64,000 nucleotides of DNA from NCBI GenBank assembly GCA_030690165.1, contig JAUYHF010000007.1, forward strand, positions 26,722 through 90,721, in the 5' to 3' direction. Below the pieces are notes generated by a model. That model was not told the DNA's origin. It made no database searches and was given only the letters and a program-made list of their open reading frames with translations. Made by a program: the position numbers and the translations under genes. Below, in pieces: positions 3,154-60,736 of the stretch; positions within the stretch are counted from its first letter, which is position 1; each line of letters begins with the position of its first letter. The stretch is from Deltaproteobacteria bacterium (GTDB lineage Bacteria > Desulfobacterota > GWC2-55-46 > UBA9637).

Positions 3154-4130
3154 ATGGTGACTCTTTCGTATATCCTTTTTTCCGTTGCAGATATGACTTT
3201 TTCTTTTATATCTTTAAGATTGCCTTTTATATTGCATCCTGCCGCATTCATATGGCCGCCGCCGCCGAATTCCATTGAAATTTCGGCGACATCTATTCTG
3301 CCCTTGGATCTCATGCTTATCTTGTATTCCCCTTGTTTTGCCTCTCTTAAAAGGATACCGACTTCGACCCCTTCAATTGTTCTTGCGTAATTTACAAATC
3401 CATCGGCCAATTCCTTGTTTGCGTTAGCCTTATCAAGCATATCAAGGGTAACGACCAGAGAGGCGACCCTTCCATCACTTGTCAGCTCCAATGTATTTAA
3501 TACGGATGCAAGCAGTTTTAGTTTGTTGACAGGAATGCTCTCGTAAACTCTTTGAGATATATCCCAAGGGTCAACGCCAAGCCTAAGCATTTCTCCTGCT
3601 ATACCGAATGTCTTAGGTGTAGTGCAGGAGTATCTGAATGAGCCTGTGTCCGTAAGTATTGAAGTGTATATATTTATTGCTATATCACGGGTTATCGCAA
3701 CCGGTATCTCCTTTAAAAGGTCATAAACCATCTCGCCCGCGGCGCAGGCATCCGGGTCTATGACATTTATATCGCCAAAACAGTCATTTGTGGCATGATG
3801 GTCAATATTGATAACCTTTCCCTTGTTTTTTATCTTGTGAAAATCTTCGCCAAGCCTGTCTTTTTGTCCGCAATCTACAACAAAGACAGCATCATAGATT
3901 TTGTTTTCATCTATTTTGTTTGTGCATTTGTCTGCAAAGGGGAGAAAATTAAAGGTTTTTGGAACAGGGTCATACAAATATGCGGTTACATCCTTTTTAA
4001 GCTCTTTTAATCCCAGAACAAGGGAGAGCAGCGAACCAACTGCATCCCCTTCCGGGTTGACATGAGAAGACACAAGAAAGTTTTCGCCATTTTTAATTTC
4101 GTCTATTACTTCTTCAAATTTCTGAGCCAC
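3150..4130 (-). CDS. nrnA: DHH/DHHA1 phosphoesterase, NrnA-like oligoribonuclease/pAp phosphatase
   Basis: DHH motifs (NIDHHATN) and the DHHA1 GGGGHMNAAG motif. Sits between rbfA and truB. Confidence 0.85.
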   Translation of the reverse strand: MAQKFEEVIDEIKNGENFLVSSHVNPEGDAVGSLLSLVLGLKELKKDVTAYLYDPVPKTFNFLPFADKCTNKIDENKIYDAVFVVDCGQKDRLGEDFHKIKNKGKVINIDHHATNDCFGDINVIDPDACAAGEMVYDLLKEIPVAITRDIAINIYTSILTDTGSFRYSCTTPKTFGIAGEMLRLGVDPWDISQRVYESIPVNKLKLLASVLNTLELTSDGRVASLVVTLDMLDKANANKELADGFVNYARTIEGVEVGILLREAKQGEYKISMRSKGRIDVAEISMEFGGGGHMNAAGCNIKGNLKDIKEKVISATEKRIYERVTI

Positions 4131-52006: not shown

Positions 52007-53554
52007 ATGATAGCAAAGGTGTTTAGCGGAGCGGTTTTAGGCATAGATGCGTATATTGTAGAGGTTGAGGTGGATACTGCCTTTGGCCTTCCTGTCTTTT
52101 CCACAGTCGGTTTGCCTGATAATGCTGTTAAAGAGAGCAAGGACAGAGTAAGGGCAGCCTTGAAGAATTCAGGATATGAATTTCCCGCAAAACATATAAC
52201 AGTGAACCTTGCGCCTGCGGATGTGAAAAAGGAGGGGACAACATTTGATCTGCCGGTAAGCATCGGGATTCTGACTGCTGAAGGGATTGTAAAAAAGGAA
52301 AGACTGTCTGATTATATGATCTTAGGCGAGCTCTCTCTGGACGGAAGGGTGAAACCTGTAAAAGGTGTTTTGCCAATGGCTGTTGCCGCAAAGAGGGAGG
52401 GCTTTAAAGGCATAATCCTTCCAAAGGAAAATGCCGAAGAGGCTGCCCTTGTGGATGGCATAGAGGTCCTTGGCATAGAAAATCTTTCACAGCTTGTGGA
52501 GTTTTTAAATGGCAATATTGAAATCCATGCCTGCAGGATAGATATTGAAACATATTTTAAAACTGATGGAGAATCGTACGTTGATTTGAATGAGGTAAAA
52601 GGCCAGGAACATGTAAAAAGGGCAATAGAGATAGCAGCGGCAGGCGGCCACAATCTCCTTATGATAGGACCACCTGGTTCAGGCAAAACCATGCTTGCCA
52701 GGCGCATGCCGACTGTCCTGCCAGACATGACATTGGATGAGGCAATAGAGACAACAAAGATTCACAGTGTCGCAGGGGTTTTGGACGGAAAAAGGGCTTT
52801 AGTAACAGCAAGGCCGTTTAGAAACCCGCATCATACAATCTCAGATGCAGGTTTGATCGGCGGCTCCCGCATCCCTAAGCCCGGCGAGGTTTCCCTTGCC
52901 CATAACGGCATTTTATTTTTGGATGAACTGCCTGAGTTTAAAAAGAATGTGCTTGAGGTGTTAAGGCAGCCCCTTGAGGACGGCAGGGTTACAATATCAA
53001 GGGCAGCCATCTCTCTTACCTATCCATCCGGTTTTATACTGATTGCAGCTATGAACCCGTGTCCCTGCGGCTTTCTCGGAGACCCACATAAGGAATGCCA
53101 TTGCACGTCGATGCAGATTCAAAAATACAGGTCAAAGATTTCAGGGCCGCTCATGGACAGGATTGATATCCACTGCGATGTGCCTGCTGTCAGATTTAAA
53201 GAGCTTTCAAGCGATACAAAGGGCGAGTCCTCAAAAGATATAAAGGCAAGGGTTGATATAGCAAGAAAGATTCAGACAGAGCGGTTTGCAGGCTATCCTA
53301 AACATGAAGGCAGAAGGCTTTATTCCAACAGCCAGATGGCAGGACGTCATATAAAAAAGTTTTGCGGGATAGGTGATGATGGCAAAAGGCTTCTGGAAAT
53401 GGCTGTGGACAAACTTGGCTTGTCAGCGAGGGCATACACCAGGATATTAAAGGTTGCGCGGACAATAGCTGACATGGAGGGCGAGGAGCGGATAAAATCT
53501 CATCATCTTTCAGAGGCGATACAATACAGGAGTTTGGACAGGGGGATGGTGTAA
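52007..53554 (+). CDS. comM: YifB/ComM-family Mg-chelatase-like AAA+ ATPase
   Basis: 515 aa; Lon-like N-domain, GPPGSGKTMLARR, ILFLDELPEF, C-terminal ChlI-type domain. Confidence 0.93.
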   Translation: MIAKVFSGAVLGIDAYIVEVEVDTAFGLPVFSTVGLPDNAVKESKDRVRAALKNSGYEFPAKHITVNLAPADVKKEGTTFDLPVSIGILTAEGIVKKERLSDYMILGELSLDGRVKPVKGVLPMAVAAKREGFKGIILPKENAEEAALVDGIEVLGIENLSQLVEFLNGNIEIHACRIDIETYFKTDGESYVDLNEVKGQEHVKRAIEIAAAGGHNLLMIGPPGSGKTMLARRMPTVLPDMTLDEAIETTKIHSVAGVLDGKRALVTARPFRNPHHTISDAGLIGGSRIPKPGEVSLAHNGILFLDELPEFKKNVLEVLRQPLEDGRVTISRAAISLTYPSGFILIAAMNPCPCGFLGDPHKECHCTSMQIQKYRSKISGPLMDRIDIHCDVPAVRFKELSSDTKGESSKDIKARVDIARKIQTERFAGYPKHEGRRLYSNSQMAGRHIKKFCGIGDDGKRLLEMAVDKLGLSARAYTRILKVARTIADMEGEERIKSHHLSEAIQYRSLDRGMV

Positions 53555-53725
53555 GGAGAACAATTATCAAGCTTTTCAAAAGAAAATTGGAAGAGAGAGA
53601 GGAGCGATTTATTGCAGATTTTAGAATAAAGAGGATAAAGGGATGGAGGAGGTATCCATCAGGAAGGCTATATCGGCAGGGGGTTTTATTTTTTTCGATG
53701 TTTGATAATTATTTTCCCCCTGTCC

Positions 53726-53755
53726 CCTTGCGGCGGGGATTACGTTGCCGCAAGG
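53726..53755. terminator. 9-bp perfect hairpin between convergent comM and the lipoprotein gene
   Basis: CCTTGCGGC-(12 nt)-GCCGCAAGG; no T-run on either side. Confidence 0.3.
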
Positions 53756-53772
53756 CATTGTATATGGGAGCG

Positions 53773-54372
53773 TCATGGCGATGGCCCCTTATCTATGCCC
53801 TGGGTTGGGGCTGCTATCCTCATCCTGTCCATGATTTCGCTGTCATGAAGCAAATCTTTTATCAGATTATGCATAAGAGTCGCGAGCGCGGTATTTGCGC
53901 TCCACTTTGACAGCTCCGACCTCTGGAACTCTTTCGACCACGAACCATCCTCTGAAGAAAGCGTTAACTTCATCCTGCCTTCAACGCCCCAAAGACCACT
54001 TTCCCACCATACATCGCTTACCTTGACATAAATCTTGGCGGGGCTTTCCGCGGAAACCTCCACGCCTCTTTTCGCCAATTCCTCTGCGTAGGCCACAAGA
54101 AAAACATCGGTCCATTGCTTGTAATTCGCGTAGTGTTTATGTTTAATTGGAACGATTATAGGGAAAACAATGACGATGTTCCAGTAGCTTTTGATTAAAT
54201 GACGTTCGTTATCCGTCTGGCCGTTAATGAGTTGAACCGAATGTTTTTCCTCTAACACGCCCACAGTATCCAACCCTATTTCGGCGACTTTGCTGGGCGA
54301 GAAGACATGCGAACACCCGGAAATAAGCATGACGGCCGTTGGCAAAAACACATAGTAAAGGTTTTTTTTCAT
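53773..54372 (-). CDS. hypothetical lipoprotein
   Basis: MKKNLYYVFLPTAVMLISGC lipobox; no family recognised. Confidence 0.6.
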   Translation of the reverse strand: MKKNLYYVFLPTAVMLISGCSHVFSPSKVAEIGLDTVGVLEEKHSVQLINGQTDNERHLIKSYWNIVIVFPIIVPIKHKHYANYKQWTDVFLVAYAEELAKRGVEVSAESPAKIYVKVSDVWWESGLWGVEGRMKLTLSSEDGSWSKEFQRSELSKWSANTALATLMHNLIKDLLHDSEIMDRMRIAAPTQGIDKGPSP

Positions 54373-54459
54373 AAAAAAGCCTCCTTATAAGCTTTTTAAA
54401 ATGGATATTTAATTAAGTTATAACAGAAGACGTGGTATTGTCAACCCCAATTCTCCTGC

Positions 54460-55800
54460 ATGTGGTAGCAAAGTAAAACTGTCAGGGTATAACTGCAACA
54501 AGATAATGTCAGGGTATGGAAAAAGTGAGCCTGACAATGAAAGAATTAAAGAGAGTAGAAGTGATTCAAAAAGCGGTATCAGGAGAGATAACCGTCATGG
54601 AAGCAAAAGAGTTTCTTGGATTGAGTGAAAGGCAAGTTTACCGGTTAAAGTGTTCTTTCAAATTGAAAGGAATGAAAGGGCTTATACATGGTAACAGAGA
54701 CAAAATCTCCCCAAGACGTTTAGACAATGAAATATGTGAAAAGGTTGTGAAACTGGCAAAGGGGGAATATGAAGGGTATAACGATTCCTTTTTTACCGAG
54801 AGATTAGGAGAGGAGGAAGGCATTCAAATAAGCAGGGAAAAGGTAAGACAAATCCTGCGTAAACAGGGCATAGTCCCAAAAAGAAAGAGAAGGCGTCCAA
54901 CGCAGGACAAGAAGAGATAGGAAGCCTCAATCAGGCATGATGCTGCAAACAGATGGAAGCCGGCATGACTGGCTTCAGGGCAGAGGAGAATATCTTACCC
55001 TCATAGGAGCTATCGATGATGCAACCAACGAGGTTCCGTATGCCCTGTTCGCTCCCTACGAGACTACTGAAGGTTATATGAAGATGCTTATTGAAATAGC
55101 GAAAAGGAAGGGCTTGCCTCTTTCTCTTTATGCGGACCGGCACAGCATATTTCAAATAGAGAGGCATACACCTACCATTGCCGAACAGTTAAATGGAAAG
55201 CCTGACAAGACCCAATTAGGCAGGGCATTGGATGAACTGGGAGTGCAACTCATTCCTGCAAACTCTCCTCAGGCCAAGGGTCGCCAAGAGCGTTTGTGGG
55301 GGACTTTTCAGGACAGACTCGTATCTGAACTAAAACGATTCAATGCCAAAACCCAAGATGAGGCAACTGCTGTGCTTTTGAAATTCCTGCCGGATTATAA
55401 CCGCAAGTTTATGGTAGAGCCTGCCGATAAGAAATCGGCATGGAGAAGTATTGACAATATAGACCTGCATAAGTATTTCTGCATGAAATACAACCGTGTT
55501 GTGGGAAATGACAACACCATATCGTTTATGAACGAAAAGATACAGATATGGAGTTCAAAAACAAGATACAGCTTTGCAAAGGCCAAAGTGGATGTGCATC
55601 ATTTAATAGATGGAAAGATTAGAATATTTTATAAGGGAGAATTGATTGCAGAGGAAGAAGGTCTTGCCAGCGCACAGCTAAATAAGAGAGAACGGTTAAG
55701 AAAAAGATCCTGTATAACAAATAAATCTAATGAAAGGATTTCCTTGCAACCCTGACATTTTCATTTTGCTCTTAACCTGACATATTGACTTTGCTGCGAC
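54460..55800 (+). mobile_element. IS1202-group (ISNCY-family) insertion sequence, ~1.34 kb, with imperfect ~30-bp terminal IRs and 16-bp direct target duplication
   Basis: IRL GTGGTAGCAAAGTAAAACTGTCAGGGTA vs the reverse complement of IRR GTCGCAGCAAAGTCAATATGTCAGGTTA. Subterminal ATGTCAGG(G/T)T is repeated twice at each end. Flanked by ACCCCAATTCTCCTGC at 54444-54459 and 55801-55816. Confidence 0.8.
54516..55755 (+). pseudogene. IS1202/ISNCY-type DDE transposase split into two frames (134 aa + 272 aa)
   Basis: ORF1 has an HTH (EAKEFLGLSERQVYRLK..LIHGNR). ORF2 has MLQTDGSRHDWL, AIDDATN, YADRHSIF, SPQAKGRQERLWGTFQDRL. The second frame is open from 54874 (..RRTRRDRKPQSGMMLQTDGS), so a +1 shift occurs around the A-rich tract 54876-54900. 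Confidence 0.8.
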
Positions 55801-55815
55801 ACCCCAATTCTCCTG

Positions 55816-55842
55816 CGGGTTCAGGTTTGCAACCTGAACCCG
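55816..55842. repeat. REP hairpin H1
   Basis: CGGGTTCAGGTT-TGC-AACCTGAACCCG, 12-bp perfect stem. Immediately right of the IS target duplication. Confidence 0.75.
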
Positions 55843-55874
55843 AATAGTTCGTATAAAGCAAACATGAATTATTG

Positions 55875-55899
55875 GGGAGCAGGTTACAAACCTGCTCCC
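55875..55899. repeat. REP hairpin H2
   Basis: GGGAGCAGGTT-ACA-AACCTGCTCCC; same architecture as H1 and H3. Confidence 0.7.
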
Positions 55900-55907
55900 G
55901 CAAATCT

Positions 55908-56411
55908 ATGCCATCAATAAGGATTGCGAAAAAGTGTAATTCGGGTTTTTATTATCTTACTTTCACTATCAGAAACTGGTATTACATATTTGACAGGCAC
56001 AACCGTTTTGAGATACTTGCGAAATCTTTAAAATATTGTCAAAAACACAAAGGTCTTAAATTGTATGCCTATGTATTTATGCTTAATCACATACACCTGA
56101 TTGTATCATCCGATGATATGATCTGTTTTGTCCGGGACTTTAAAAAGTTCACCTCAAAAGAAATTCAGAAGAATATCATTGCGACAGAACCAAATGTTTT
56201 GAGTCTCTTTGATGTCGGGAGCGGCAAGTATGAATTTTGGGAACGGACTAATATGCCGAAGCTAATTGAACAAGAGGAGTATTTATTTCAAAAGGTAATA
56301 TACATTCATTCAAATCCAGTGCGAAAACAGTATGTGAAACGTCCTGAAGACTGGGTATGGTCATCGGCAAATCATGAGAGCATGGTTTTGGTTGAACCGT
56401 TGCCGATATGA
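55908..56411 (+). CDS. REP-associated tyrosine transposase (RAYT; IS200/IS605-like Y1 HUH)
   Basis: HUH motif (MLNHIHLIV) and catalytic-Tyr helix (VIYIHSNPVRKQYV). ATG 55908 is preferred; the listed TTG 55872 would read through hairpin H2. Confidence 0.8.
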   Translation: MPSIRIAKKCNSGFYYLTFTIRNWYYIFDRHNRFEILAKSLKYCQKHKGLKLYAYVFMLNHIHLIVSSDDMICFVRDFKKFTSKEIQKNIIATEPNVLSLFDVGSGKYEFWERTNMPKLIEQEEYLFQKVIYIHSNPVRKQYVKRPEDWVWSSANHESMVLVEPLPI

Positions 56412-56417
56412 AATTTA

Positions 56418-56442
56418 GGGTTCAAGTTGCAAACTTGAACCC
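56418..56442. repeat. REP hairpin H3 (inverted orientation relative to H1, including flank)
   Basis: GGGTTCAAGTT-GCA-AACTTGAACCC followed by GCAGAGGGGT. This mirrors ACCCCAATTCTCCTGC-GGGTTCAGG.. at H1. Confidence 0.75.
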
Positions 56443-56524
56443 GCAGAGGGGTTTAATAGTTTGTTGAAAAAGATTTGAATATAAAGTTCTTATAGTATAG
56501 AATTGAAAGGAAAAGGAGGCGCTC

Positions 56525-56818
56525 ATGCGAGCAACACAAAAAGAGAAAGACATAGTGCATGTCAAACAGTATGTAACCGATGCAAAAGGGCATAAGATGG
56601 CTGCGATTCTTGATATAAAAGAATTAGCAAGAGTCCATGAACTGCTGGAAGACCTTGCAGACCTGAAGGTTATTGAAGAAAGGGTGTATGAACTCGTCAT
56701 CAAAAATTCCGCAAAGAAAGAACTCGATGATATTCCTGCTGCTCAATTCTTAAAGATTGATGCCGCCATTCTGTCATTAAATACATCCCGTTCATTTCCT
56801 TTCAAAACTTCAGAATAA
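56525..56818 (+). pseudogene. decayed type II TA module: antitoxin-like N-half fused to a truncated RelE/ParE-like toxin N-terminus
   Basis: ..KMAAILDIKELARVHELLEDLADLKVIEER (antitoxin-like) runs into YELVIKNSAKKELDDIPAAQFLKIDAAILSL (typical RelE/ParE start) and stops after about 45 toxin residues. Confidence 0.4.
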
Positions 56819-56860
56819 TCGTGGGAAAAGTAAGTGCAAAAAAATGAATGCAAAAAAACA

Positions 56861-56889
56861 TTGACATATTTTAATATATTTGCTAATTT
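56861..56889 (+). promoter_or_regulatory. promoter of the truncated rho copy
   Basis: TTGACA (56861-56866), 17 nt, TAATTT (56884-56889), followed by a ~310-nt C-rich/G-poor leader homologous to 58935-59222. Confidence 0.45.
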
Positions 56890-57202
56890 AAAATAACCAT
56901 TCGGATTGAGACACCCTATATTGATAACTTTTTTCATATCTCATCACTAAACAACCCAAATGCTATTACCTTTAACAATCCCAGAGATAGGTTGAAAATC
57001 AGAGAAAAGACATTTACCGCTTGAAAATTTATTCTAACCTAATAACAACGCCAGCCATAGGCAGGCTATATAAATGGTAACATACCTTACCGTAATCAAA
57101 TCAAATTTGTTTTTAGAGACAGTACGCAGTGAAGCAGTGCGCAGGTTATCTACTGCCTGCAACTCATACGATACTGCTCACTATTAAAAAGAGGAGTGAT
57201 TT

Positions 57203-57934
57203 ATGAATCTTAAAGAACTAAAAGAAAAAAAGATTGGCGAGCTTACATCGCTTGCCAAGCAGTACAATATAGAGGGCGCTGCGAGCATGAGGAAGCAGGA
57301 TATGATCTTTGCGTTGCTTCAGTCACAGTCAGAGCAGAATGGCCTGATATACAGCGAAGGTGTTCTTGAAACCCTGCCGGACGGGTTTGGTTTTTTGAGG
57401 GCGCCTGACTATAACTACCTTCCCGGACCAGACGATATATACATATCCCCATCACAGATCAGAAGGTTTAATCTAAGGACAGGCGATATTGTGTCAGGCC
57501 AGATCAGGCCGCCAAAAGAAGGAGAAAGATATTTTGCCCTTCTCAAGGTAGAAAAGGTAAATTATGAAGACCCTGATGTTGCCAAAGATAAAATACTTTT
57601 TGACAACCTTACACCCTTATATCCTCAGGAAAAAATAAGGCTTGAACTGCCAGGCAAAAAAACAGATCTCTCTATGAGGATAATGGATTTTTTCACGCCA
57701 ATCGGCAAGGGGCAGAGGGGTCTTATTGTATCTCCGCCAAGGGCAGGCAAGACAGTACTTTTACAAAAGATTGCCAACAGCATAACAACCAACCATCCTG
57801 ATGTTGTCCTTATTGTGCTTCTCATTGATGAAAGGCCTGAAGAGGTTACTGATATGCAACGTTCTGTGAAGGGAGAGGTTATAAGTTCCACCTTTGATGA
57901 GCCTGCGCAGAGACACGTCCAGATGAGGTTATGA
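57203..57934 (+). pseudogene. rho: 5'-terminal rho fragment (codons 1-240 of Rho plus 3 unrelated codons), intact reading frame
   Basis: Collinear with 59223-59944. By hand comparison 39 codons differ, 33 of them synonymous. The last 117 nt (57808-57924) are identical to 59828-59944. It then diverges to MRL-stop. Contains the N-terminal RNA-binding domain and Walker A (PPRAGKT). Confidence 0.85.
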
Positions 57935-58119
57935 GGGACACATCCCATTTATAGGTAAATAGGATAAACAGCCCCAGGGACTTTGAATAGTATTTTGAAA
58001 CAGGCAAAATTAAAGGGAGAGTAAGATAGGCATCCCCCTATTTTTTATTGAAGCCAATTTGAATCGGTAGAAAACGGTCAAACTGAACCAAAATTATTTT
58101 TCTGTGTAAAAGGAGCGAT

Positions 58120-58148
58120 TTGACAATCATATATATGTGATATACAAT
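58120..58148 (+). promoter_or_regulatory. near-consensus promoter of the RHH-PIN cassette within an AT-palindromic tract
   Basis: TTGACA (58120-58125), 17 nt, TACAAT (58143-58148). The surrounding ATATATGTGATATACAATATATACAAATATATAT is a likely RHH operator. Confidence 0.5.
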
Positions 58149-58179
58149 ATATACAAATATATATTCGGGAGGCAGAGAC

Positions 58180-58428
58180 ATGACAACACAAATGATCGTA
58201 AGGATAGATGAAGGGGTCAAAAACAGGCTTAATAGACTTGCAAGGCTTGAAGGCAAGACAACAAGCGAAATGGTCAGGGAACTGATAGAGGAACGTATTA
58301 AAGAACGCGATATCGGCGCATACGTTGATGACCTGTGGAATAGAATCGGCAGGAAATTAAAAGCAAAAGGTGTAACGGCTGCAATAATAGACAAGGCTGT
58401 CAAAGAGGCGCGAAAGAAGCAGGGATGA
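58180..58428 (+). CDS. ribbon-helix-helix (CopG/Arc-type) antitoxin
   Basis: 82 aa; MIVRIDEGVKNRLNRLARLEGKTTSEMVRELIEE. Overlaps the PIN gene by 4 nt (ATGA). Confidence 0.8.
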   Translation: MTTQMIVRIDEGVKNRLNRLARLEGKTTSEMVRELIEERIKERDIGAYVDDLWNRIGRKLKAKGVTAAIIDKAVKEARKKQG

Positions 58429-58841
58429 AGGTTGTCATTGATACGAATATCTTTGTTTCATCCTTTTTCGGAGGCAACCCGAAGAAGATTATAGACCTGT
58501 GGAAGAAAGAGAAAATAACCCTTTGTCTGTCTCATGCTGTCCTTGATGAATATATAGATGTTCTTCAAAGAATCGGGTTGACGGACGAAGCGGAGCTTGA
58601 AGAGTTATTATCCCTTTTTTCAAGGGGCTTTAATATCTTGTTTACCGCAAAAACTCCAAAAATAAAGATTGTCAAAAATGACCCTGATGATGATAAGTTT
58701 ATTGAATGCGCTGCAGCGCTAAAGGCAGATGCTATTATAACAGGAGATAAGAAAGTCCTTGCTGTAAAGGAATACATGGGTATCAGGATATTAACGTCTC
58801 AGCAGTTTTTGGAAATCCATGACAATTTTGAGAAAAAATGA
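58425..58841 (+). CDS. PIN-domain toxin (VapC-like, TIGR00305-type)
   Basis: MKVVIDTNIFVSSFFGG..., ..DPDDDKFIECA.., ..IITGDK.. acidic residues of the PIN fold. Confidence 0.8.
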   Translation: MKVVIDTNIFVSSFFGGNPKKIIDLWKKEKITLCLSHAVLDEYIDVLQRIGLTDEAELEELLSLFSRGFNILFTAKTPKIKIVKNDPDDDKFIECAAALKADAIITGDKKVLAVKEYMGIRILTSQQFLEIHDNFEKK

Positions 58842-58904
58842 TTCTTTGCAATGAAGTATAATGGGCCGTCTGCAGGTTGGTTAAGAACCCCTGCAAAAAA
58901 ACTA

Positions 58905-58934
58905 TTGACAGGTTTTAACAAATCGTGCTATTTT
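58905..58934 (+). promoter_or_regulatory. promoter of full-length rho
   Basis: TTGACA (58905-58910), 18 nt, TATTTT (58929-58934), then a ~290-nt C-rich leader. Confidence 0.45.
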
Positions 58935-59222
58935 AAGACTACCTTTCAGAGCAATACACCTGAATATAATTTTTTTATATCTCATCATTATACAATCCAA
59001 ATGGATTTACCTTTAATAACCCCATAGACAGATTGAAAAACAGAGAGAAAATATTTGCCGCTTGAAAGATATCCTAACCCAATAACATTGCTCACCATAC
59101 ACGGACATACAATGGCATCATCTTGCTGCACAATCAATCGCAGGCGCTTAATTTATGATTTTTAGACATGATAAGTCTGACTTATCAGGACAAACAATCA
59201 ATTATTTAAAGAGGAGTGATTT

Positions 59223-60476
59223 ATGAATCTTAAAGAACTAAAAGAACAAAAAATCGGCGAGCTTACATCACTTGCCAAGAAATACAATATAGAAGGCGCT
59301 GCGAGCATGAGGAAGCAGGATATTATCTTTGCGCTGCTTCAGTCGCAGTCAGAGCAGAATGGCCTCATATACAGTGAAGGCGTTCTCGAAACCCTGCCGG
59401 ACGGGTTTGGTTTTTTGAGGGCGCCTGATTATAACTACCTTCCTGGACCAGACGATATATATATCTCTCCATCACAGATCAGAAGGTTTAATCTAAGGAC
59501 AGGCGACATTGTATCAGGCCAGATTAGGCCGCCAAAGGAAGGAGAAAGATATTTTGCCCTTCTCAAAGTAGAAAAGGTAAATTATGAAGACCCTGATGTT
59601 GCCAAAGACAAAATACTTTTTGACAACCTTACACCTTTATATCCTCAGGAAAAAATAAGGCTTGAACTGCCCGGCAAAAAAACAGATCTCTCCATGAGGA
59701 TAATGGATTTTTTCACGCCAATTGGCAAAGGGCAGAGAGGTCTTATTGTATCTCCGCCAAGGGCAGGCAAAACAGTCCTTCTCCAGAAGCTCGCCAATAG
59801 CATAACAACCAACCATCCGGAAGTTATCCTTATTGTGCTTCTCATTGATGAAAGGCCTGAAGAGGTTACTGATATGCAACGTTCTGTGAAGGGAGAGGTT
59901 ATAAGTTCCACCTTTGATGAGCCTGCGCAGAGACACGTCCAGATTGCGGAAATGGTGATAGAAAAGGCCAAGAGGCTTGTTGAGCATCAACGGGATGTTG
60001 TTATTCTGCTGGATTCCATCACAAGGCTTGCCAGGGCGTATAATACTGTTGTGCCGCCGAGCGGCAAGGTGCTTTCCGGCGGTGTGGATTCAAATGCTCT
60101 GCATAAGCCAAAGAGATTCTTTGGCGCAGCAAGGAATATTGAGGAAGGGGGAAGCCTTACCATTGTTGCAACAGCATTGATTGAGACAGGGAGCAGAATG
60201 GACGAGGTTATATTTGAAGAGTTTAAAGGCACAGGCAACATGGAAATAGTCCTTGATAGAAAATTGTCGGAAAGGCGCATCTTTCCTGCTATTGATATTA
60301 ACAGGTCAGGTACAAGGAAGGAAGACCTTCTCCTTACAAAAGAGGAGTTGAATCGCATATGGATATTAAGAAAGGTGCTTCAACCGCTCAACCCTGTGGA
60401 GAGTATGGAATTCCTATTGGATAAGATACAAAGCACGGATACAAACAAAGACTTTCTTAAATTAATGAGTAAGTAG
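59223..60476 (+). CDS. rho: transcription termination factor Rho
   Basis: 417 aa; N-terminal RNA-binding domain, Walker [19 protein letters not shown]- and R-loops ([23 protein letters not shown]). Confidence 0.97.
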
Positions 60477-60535
60477 CAGGGGCTATAATTGCTTTCAAGA
60501 TGTTTGCCGGCAAAGGCTGTTGGAGGTATTTAAAA

Positions 60536-60736
60536 ATGAAAGAAAAAATTGTTAGGATAGATAAAGGTAAAGAAGGGGTGGTCTTGCCGGAGGATTATCT
60601 CAGATATCTTGAACTGATACCCGGCGCGGATGTAGAGCTTGCCCTTGACAAGAAAAAAAATTGGATAATCATCAGGCCCCTGCATGGGGAGGATTTTGTG
60701 GAGCACTTTAAAACAACAATGGGGGCAATGGCATAA
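60536..60736 (+). CDS. AbrB/MazE/SpoVT-type DNA-binding (antitoxin-like) protein, no partner toxin
   Basis: MKEKIVRIDKGKEGVVLPEDYLRYLELIPGADVELALDKKKNWIIIRP swapped-hairpin pattern; GGAGG RBS. Confidence 0.6.
   Translation: MKEKIVRIDKGKEGVVLPEDYLRYLELIPGADVELALDKKKNWIIIRPLHGEDFVEHFKTTMGAMA

Follow-up and report, generated by a model that had tools for sequence, protein, structure and literature searches.

Some genomic islands integrate at a gene end and bring a replacement end with them, as in the duplication of attachment (att) sites of the tRNA/tmRNA type. The isolated N-terminal domain of the termination factor Rho binds RNA, and we know of no natural stand-alone version of this domain; none was found among the loci and proteins recovered here. 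Displaced gene remnants beside newly acquired modules have been described for effector-immunity arrays of type VI secretion systems (T6SS) and for orphan arrays of the Rhs and contact-dependent inhibition (CDI) systems (PMC5361080). Homologous exchange at one end combined with illegitimate joining at the other, as well as circularisation followed by a single crossover, are both documented (PMC3240628), and PMC5361080 cites de Vries & Wackernagel 2002 and Meier & Wackernagel 2003 on these mechanisms. Here we consider a stretch of 64,000 nt (the window) from contig JAUYHF010000007.1 of a Deltaproteobacteria bacterium assembly (GCA_030690165.1), from a groundwater lineage that is uncultured, where a truncated copy of rho (rho', or copy 1) with its own promoter and leader precedes the full-length gene (copy 2), an RHH-PIN toxin-antitoxin (TA) cassette lying between them (Table 1). 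In our interpretation, to which we assign a probability of about 0.75, rho' is a real and incidental recombination scar between two strain haplotypes, and not a new regulator. The fragment is strain-specific and probably recent, and the event that left it is of a known kind, of which it provides a further example.

Two rho alleles in tandem

The BLASTN alignment of the two copies extends over 737 nt (57188-57924 and 59208-59944) without gaps, with 42 mismatches and 94.3% identity, a similarity far above chance. Among codons 1-240, 39 differ, 33 of them synonymously, and the six replacements (K9Q, Q20K, M34I, I190L, D200E, V202I, copy 1 vs. copy 2) are conservative. The final mismatch is at 57806, and the 117 nt from 57808 to the last rho nucleotide of copy 1 (57924) are identical to copy 2. 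Copy 1 then ends with ATG AGG TTA TGA (57923-57934), i.e. Met-Arg-Leu-stop, and its predicted product comprises 243 aa with the C-terminus ...HVQMRL. The collinearity, the codon counts, the lack of gaps, the 117-nt identity and the three unrelated final codons had all been reported from a comparison by hand in the preliminary description of this locus, and both the alignment and the codon-by-codon comparison reproduce them.

Copy 2 has the complete Rho domain set, PF07498, PF07497 and PF00006 (residues 158-362). Copy 1, which stops after residue 240, does not; according to Pfam, it retains Rho_N and the Rho RNA-binding domain, whereas no more than the first third of the ATPase domain, including Walker A, is left, the PF00006 match being restricted to residues 158-225 (profile positions 2-66 of 213). 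Aligned with Rho from E. coli, rho' corresponds to residues 1-242, and the break, at approximately 241/242, falls midway through the ATPase domain. The segment DVVILLDS (residues 257-264 of copy 2) and everything beyond it are missing from copy 1. By the roles assigned in E. coli Rho, this segment is Walker B, and the Q loop, the R loop and the arginine finger are lost as well. As judged from these alignments, the break does not coincide with a domain boundary but interrupts the RecA-type fold between Walker A and Walker B.

Related haplotypes (loci denoted by L) were recovered through exact-protein look-ups from groundwater and other metagenomes, and variable sites were tabulated over ten rho alleles. 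In positions 1-606 of the coding sequence (CDS), 8 differences separate copy 1 from the full-length L092 allele, whereas 42 separate it from copy 2. Copy 2, in turn, differs from L002 and L006 at 10 and 13 positions, respectively, in CDS 1-606, and at 6 and 8 positions in CDS 721-1254; its identity to the L002 backbone (98.7%) is as high as that of the flanks. By these comparisons copy 2 is the resident-type allele, belonging to the L002/L006 group, and copy 1, with codons 1-202 of the L092 type, is the odd one. A full-length Rho carrying all six copy-1 residues (K9, Q20, M34, I190, D200, V202) exists (protein P0001).

Copy 1 is a mosaic, with the exchange between CDS 605 and 650. At sites distinguishing L092 from copy 2, it is L092-like in 37 cases and copy-2-like in 3 cases in CDS 1-606, and L092-like in none and copy-2-like in 3 cases in CDS 607-720 (Fisher p = 0.0016). 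The 117-nt tract is a probable homologous crossover or gene-conversion tract. This tract is conserved population-wide, with 0-4 differences between copy 2 and other alleles; given an L092-like source, about 3 differences are expected in it, and the probability of observing none is ~0.05, as against 2e-4 under a uniform rate, so that its identity is less striking than the uniform-rate estimate would imply.

The ratio of nonsynonymous to synonymous substitution rates (dN/dS, Nei-Gojobori) is 0.049 between the two copies and 0.045-0.054 between copy 2 and the full-length L092 allele. As the former equals the level of full-length alleles, the synonymous excess has been inherited from divergence as complete genes and says nothing about selection after truncation. 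More generally, a low dN/dS between paralogous pieces can stem from allelic divergence and not from selection on the fragment. Private substitutions in copy 1 are few (five, all synonymous), which fits a recent event.

Both copies keep a TTGACA promoter, as the preliminary description stated: in leader 1 the -35 element is at 56861-56866, with TGC-TAATTT at 56881-56889, and in leader 2 it is at 58905-58910, with TGC-TATTTT downstream; only the leader 2 promoter passes the promoter scan. The accompanying claim of a homologous leader of ~300 nt has to be shortened, since homology is confined to the first ~200 nt (56849-57047 vs. 58892-59087, 77.6% identity, 7 gaps in BLASTN) and the distal ~140 nt (57048-57187 vs. 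59088-59207) do not align. The region from ~56834 through 57924 matches L092, L093, L094, L095, L098 and L099 contiguously at 94-97% (95.7% for leader 1 against the L092 leader), and judging by these matches leader 1 represents the type that is common among the population's leaders. Leader 2 is composite, its first 200 nt being L006-type and the remainder common to L002.

Two types of rho leaders are seen in the population, with ~78% identity over the promoter-proximal ~200 nt and unrelated distal parts of ~140 nt, and the last 15 nt, including the ribosome-binding site, are common to both. Leaders of the L002 type are themselves mosaic, combining a third promoter-proximal variant with the type-2 distal part. 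The Rfam search of both leaders yielded no family match, tRNA-Leu being the sole Rfam result.

The comM-rho gap and the recurrent junction

The variable gap in front of rho (53556-58891) is bounded upstream by comM (52007-53554), and its content differs markedly among the related loci. In L001-L004 rho is single, encodes a protein 100% identical to that of copy 2, and is accompanied neither by RHH-PIN nor by a rho fragment. These four loci match the window (98.5%) in two parts, one reaching as far as 56687 and the other starting at 58892; they have a RelB-like gene upstream of rho and, in L001 and L002, also homology to the region of the REP-associated tyrosine transposase (RAYT). L006 carries RHH-PIN, leader 2 and a complete rho next to different DNA on the left, with no rho fragment, and the same RHH-PIN-leader 2 arrangement, again with different left-hand DNA, occurs in L007-L009. 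For an open reading frame (ORF) of 77 aa lying left of the L006 TA block, neither Pfam nor NCBIfam gave a match. In L094 the gap holds HicA-HicB, and in L098 a MazE-like gene. In L092 comM is followed directly by leader 1 and full-length rho with nothing between. Several contigs begin or break ~300 nt upstream of rho, where strain heterogeneity starts.

On the evidence of these loci, this lineage has a hypervariable hot spot between comM and rho, at which TA cassettes and small mobile elements are acquired, exchanged and eroded. It is empty or occupied by HicAB, a MazE-like gene, RAYT with RelB, or (hicA)-RHH-PIN, and a TA module adjoining rho is the rule rather than an oddity. The initial view, which held it unusual for an essential gene to bracket a PIN module, is weakened, as several TA types lie directly upstream of rho in the lineage.

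The rho fragment is absent from every related contig covering the region (L001-L004, L006-L008, L092, L094, L098), with L009, L093, L095 and L099 being uninformative, as they start too near the TA cassette or rho. Among the recovered related contigs, the junction between rho' and the TA block occurs only in the window and in the short contig L005, which is 100% identical to it. Neither the rho' product nor the RelB/RelE' fusion (described below) had a record in exact-protein look-ups, and the metagenome scan with a 24-mer from leader 1 gave no match. Two loci obtained in the scan with a copy-1-specific 20-mer (L090, L091) were discarded as chance matches, having no further homology to the window. 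In the scan of genome contigs for Rho (at least 600 rows), the best among the matches listed is 78% identical (Binatia, Bdellovibrionaceae, others); Rho proteins with 94-95% identity carry source names such as 'Deltaproteobacteria bacterium GWC2_42_51'.

The rho sequence of copy 1 ends at 57924, and the adjoining block of 45 nt shares only AT (2 nt) with it; the 31-mer spanning the junction is ACGTCCAGATGAGGTTATGAGGGACACATCC. The left edge of the block (GGTTATKAGGGACAC...) is fused to rho codon 240 in the window and to RAYT codon ~55 in L007 (215-270), and in L006 (240-350) it is preceded by an unassigned ORF and then three 17-nt direct repeats of TGTTATTAGGGACA. L008 differs at the block, a longer hicA being kept there. 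The left edge may be the end of a mobile element or a recombination site. The sequence GTTATKAGGGACA has one site in the window, with no further copies, no inverted copy near the PIN end and no terminal inverted repeats. Among the ORFs between comM and rho, the Pfam and NCBIfam searches yielded no recombinase apart from the ISNCY and RAYT transposases, and no integrase was found in the comM-rho gap, to which the intI scan was confined. Integron attC borders were considered and rejected, as GTTATGA/GTTATTA does not fit GTTRRRY (expected cores RYYYAAC / GTTRRRY), and neither an inverse core nor an imperfect palindrome was seen at 57925-57969 and 58842-58891.

Possible origin of rho' and alternative explanations

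The locus combines one joint with only AT shared and one exchange within the homology of diverged alleles, as expected for a recombination scar of the Campbell type or of homology-facilitated illegitimate recombination. The contributing haplotypes would be relB/relE'-leader 1-rho with an L092-type allele (haplotype 1) and hicA'-RHH-PIN-leader 2-rho with an L002/L006-type allele (haplotype 2). At the illegitimate joint, where the two sides share 2 nt (AT) at most, rho codon 240 would have become linked to the 45-nt block that lies upstream of hicA', at the left edge of this block. Homologous exchange or gene conversion within rho, at CDS 605-650, would have given the fragment its final 70-117 nt, which do not differ from copy 2. 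This state could have been reached in three ways: (i) TA-leader 2-rho(1-240) being duplicated in tandem and L092-type DNA then taking the place of the upstream part by allelic replacement; (ii) integration of a circularised fragment through a single crossover; and (iii) homology-facilitated illegitimate recombination followed by gene conversion. In each case a promoter-bearing 5' fragment of the second allele would be left upstream of the TA cassette, and the event would have been tolerated because the intact rho stayed downstream. The anatomy of the locus, the hot spot, the mosaic and the assignment of alleles are shown, as is the lack of the fragment in relatives; we infer both the order of these events and the lack of a selected function for the 243-aa product. 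From its intact promoter and leader, rho' is probably still transcribable.

Several observations weigh against this interpretation. No decay is seen in rho', with the frame intact and all private substitutions synonymous, and in promoter, leader and ribosome-binding site it corresponds to functional alleles, which fits retention as well as a very recent event. The mosaic rests on just 3 informative sites within the tract. L005 may share the sample of the window, and the phasing of the copy-1 variants to the junction over the 117-nt tract rests on the assembly. Finally, the same block edge is joined to three different partners, which random illegitimate recombination does not predict and which hints at a site-specific or transposon-end process.

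It is improbable that the assembly merely stitched leader 1-rho and TA-leader 2-rho, as variants from co-existing strains, in tandem by way of their common tracts, even though both haplotype classes occur in public metagenomes, fold-back artefacts are known from such assemblies (L102, see below), and the exact shared stretches of 117 and 39 nt are branch points for short-read graphs. The Logan contig L005 (SRR13727534), 100% identical to 57895-59237, indeed breaks exactly at such points, ending 30 nt into each repeat, as predicted for a k=31 graph with the duplication. Still, it spans the junction, passing from 30 nt of rho into the TA block, and no other recovered haplotype supplies this junction. 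Moreover, the joint between the rho tract and GAGGTTATGAGGG shares only 2 nt, and a de Bruijn graph cannot create such a junction. The window also lies within a long contig (in the Rho record, the longest contig is 258,792 nt), and the alternative solution of the graph, a perfect TA-leader 2-rho' tandem in a second strain, would still need a truncated rho.

An equally low probability is given to a functional fragment, with the autoregulated leader driving expression of the 243-aa N-terminal part of Rho as an RNA-binding decoy or subunit poison that would modulate Rho, or with leader-rho' coupling RHH-PIN transcription to Rho activity. Such a role would agree with the intact promoter, leader, ribosome-binding site and ORF, with the zero count of private nonsynonymous changes, and with the ability of Rho's N-terminal RNA-binding domain, solved alone (PDB 1a62, 2a8v), to fold stably and autonomously; besides, the + strand has no terminator-like site from the rho' stop to the TA promoter, making read-through into RHH-PIN possible. 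Against it stand the restriction of the junction to the window and L005 among the related contigs recovered, the low dN/dS, which predates the truncation, the position of the break inside the ATPase fold, which favours an unstable product, and the nature of the sole other 'truncated Rho' encountered (L102), which is an artefact of a fold-back contig. The initial suggestion that the fragment is retained and expressed thus has no positive evidence on its side: its dN/dS is at the full-length level, it is absent in relatives, and it is broken within a fold. A natural dominant modifier of Rho would result if the fragment were both expressed and active, an idea that the present data do not support.

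The artefact concerns protein P0018 (271 aa), rejected as a second truncated Rho because contig L102 folds back on itself, positions 1472-1583 being the reverse complement of the preceding rho (ORF region 1380-1583). Such contigs call for caution in automated searches for gene fragments. Judging by their C-terminal sequences, other short Rho matches appear to stop mid-rho as at a contig end, with the exceptions of P0019 and P0094, which have diverging tails. Natural fragments of Rho, truncated or dominant-negative, were also searched for in the literature, with no relevant result.

Still less credible is an integrative element in which RHH-PIN with a promoter, leader and rho codons 1-240 inserts site-specifically into rho, replacing its 5' part, which would stay behind as the truncated copy, with the 117-nt tract as the att site. 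Direct repeats do bracket a unit of 2020 nt and end in the identical tract, RHH-PIN is mobile (94% identical in an unrelated context, with 80-90% identical proteins named from other phyla), and the block edge next to rho' is a recurrent junction. The 2-kb unit, however, contains no recombinase, its only ORFs being RHH and PIN, while ISNCY and RAYT lie outside of it and occur independently. TA-leader 2-rho is the normal locus in L006, with another left flank and no fragment, and the mobile core in L100 and L101 (corresponding to 58117-58855) has no rho sequence. Furthermore, copy 2 matches the L002 backbone as closely as the flanks do, the homology covers 737 nt and the leader, unlike a short att site, and the difference between L002 and the window is a replacement of 174 nt by 2204 nt (56688-58891) and not a 2020-nt repeat unit. 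The preliminary description had proposed recombination between related lineages by means of such an element, with the crossover in the identical tract; the recombination and its place are in essence supported by the different alleles and the mosaic switch, but the element and the polarity are not, as there is no integrase and the upstream copy is the odd allele.

In the least probable explanation, leader 1-rho' would be kept as a sensor or modulator of Rho activity, inhibition of Rho (e.g. by a phage anti-Rho factor) relieving attenuation in the duplicated, autoregulatory leader and allowing transcription through rho' into RHH-PIN, and/or the RNA-binding fragment competing at Rho loading sites, which would make the toxin module dependent on how the termination machinery is working.

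As a recombination scar, rho' would be a natural example of recombination at a cassette hot spot leaving a promoter-bearing piece of an essential gene. The comM-rho gap itself, a swap site for at least four TA types with a recurrent breakpoint, offers more interesting loose ends than rho'.

Surrounding cassettes and known systems

Table 1. Features of the comM-rho region, in window coordinates
Feature	Position	Strand	Basis or remark
ISNCY-family insertion sequence	54460..55800	+	NCBIfam ISNCY transposase, E 3.5e-74; in the variable comM-rho gap
RAYT unit	55813..56446	+	NCBIfam REP_Tyr_transpos, E 5.4e-25; gene 55872-56411
Decayed RelB/RelE-type cassette	56525..56818	+	Pfam RelB-like, E 1.5e-6; alignment with L002
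Leader 1	56834..57202	+	Promoter and ribosome-binding site; contiguous matches in L092, L093, L094, L095, L098, L099
rho' (truncated rho, copy 1)	57203..57934	+	Rho codons 1-240, then M-R-L, stop; Pfam, alignment with E. coli Rho
Identical tract	57808..57924	+	Equals 59828-59944; copy 1 in copy-2/L002 state, not L092 state
45-nt block GAGGTTATGAGGGACACATCCCATTTATAGGTAAATAGGATAAAC	57925..57969		Between rho' and hicA remnant; alignment and BLAST coordinates
3' remnant of hicA (APGTLNSILKQAKLKGE, then stop)	57968..58020	+	Last 17 codons; compared with longer hicA of L008 and HicA of L094
37-nt motif GGCATCCCCCTATTTTTTATTGAAGCCAATTTGAA	58028..58063		Upstream of RHH-PIN in the window, downstream in L100/L101
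RHH-PIN type II TA core	58117..58855	+	Pfam RHH_1, E 5.6e-6, and PIN_3, E 6.2e-21; TIGR00305, E 1.8e-16
Leader 2	58892..59222	+	Own promoter; homology with single-copy L002 haplotype restarts at 58892
Full-length rho (copy 2)	59223..60476	+	417 aa; protein identical to single-copy Rho of L001-L004

Upstream of rho', the gap contains an unassigned minus-strand ORF of 199 aa between comM and the ISNCY element. The latter has two ORFs, helix-turn-helix (54516-54920) and DDE transposase (54937-55755), inverted repeats of 26 nt (54490-54515 / 55749-55774), and a perfect 16-nt direct repeat ACCCCAATTCTCCTGC on both flanks (54444-54459, 55801-55816). It adjoins a REP hairpin in the window and is absent at the same site in L001 and L002, so the insertion is probably recent. 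The RAYT gene lies between inverted REP-like hairpins (55813-55844, 56415-56446; a 32-nt inverted repeat, 91%), and the unit is 98.5-98.6% identical to those of L001 and L002. In the decayed cassette downstream, an ORF of 97 aa comprises a RelB-like antitoxin fused in frame to an N-terminal toxin remnant through a 58-nt deletion relative to L002 (6584-6919). By our own reading of its sequence, the toxin remnant is RelE/ParE-like; the remnant carried by L002 is shorter than that of the window. The near-identity with the L002 haplotype stops within this cassette, at the BLAST breakpoint 56687. Judging by these annotations, rho' sits amid a graveyard of TA modules and small mobile elements.

The RHH-PIN core consists of the RHH antitoxin gene (58180-58428) and the PIN toxin gene (58425-58841), overlapping by 4 nt (ATGA, 58425-58428) and preceded by a near-consensus promoter TTGACA-17-TACAAT (58120-58148, 11/12 in the promoter scan). 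The TIGR00305 match to the toxin is above the cut-off, and the toxin sequence has acidic residues at D6, D41/E42, D86-D90 and D108, in the usual spacing, which may be those of the PIN active site. The pair has the layout predicted for type II TA genes, with adjacent antitoxin and toxin in one putative operon. A core with 94% identity is found in an unrelated genomic context in L100 and L101, with no rho sequence there. PIN relatives with 80-90% identity carry the source names Nitrospirota, Thermodesulfovibrionales, Nitrospinota and the archaeon Ca. Methanoperedens, and this range indicates a recent spread of the cassette across phyla.

The region of the hicA remnant has a 47-nt match to L094. 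The 37-nt motif is located in L100 at 3625-3661, 3' of the 94% identical cassette, as if marking the cassette borders. Short direct repeats containing TAGGGWC are found near cassette borders in several loci, namely CGAAAATAGGGTC (two copies) in L094 (1300-1345), GGTAGAGGGTCA (two copies) in L100 (2720-2780, 3700-3740) and GTTATTAGGGACA (three copies) in L006 (250-306), and AAAATAGGGTCAGCGMCCATTAAACAGG is common to L094 and L100. Just 3' of rho, a small ORF (60500-60736; 66 aa as called in relatives) is kept in all related contigs reaching that far; it has no Pfam or NCBIfam match.

The RHH-PIN pair resembles other VapBC-like modules of the TIGR00305/PIN_3 type in having small overlapping antitoxin and toxin genes, a strong promoter of its own and wide mobility. 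What sets it apart from typical modules is no more than its location, directly upstream of the rho promoter, and in sister strains this location is taken by other types of TA. Residues 1-130 of rho' correspond to the Rho RNA-binding domain that folds alone (PDB 1a62/1a63, 2a8v), but, unlike the isolated domain, rho' adds ~110 residues of a cut ATPase fold.

As with islands inserted at gene ends, a partial direct duplication of the target brackets the inserted DNA and the gene remains intact. Unlike in such islands, there is no integrase, the duplication (737 nt and the leader, 94% identity) is neither short nor exact as an att site would be, the intact copy has the resident-type allele, and the insert is not found elsewhere as a unit.

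The products of homology-facilitated illegitimate recombination and of circle integration have a homologous joint (here, in rho), another joint with at most 2 nt in common, and foreign DNA accompanied by a partial duplicate of the anchor gene, all of which are present here. The locus differs from them in that its illegitimate joint reuses an edge seen in two other haplotypes, the mechanism being deduced from the product alone.

Finally, as in the T6SS and Rhs arrays, a conserved anchor gene stands by variable cassettes, the truncated leftovers come from another strain lineage, and alleles group across strains. The difference is that an essential housekeeping gene provides the anchor here, with its 5' part, and that the remnant is a single one and keeps its promoter and start codon.

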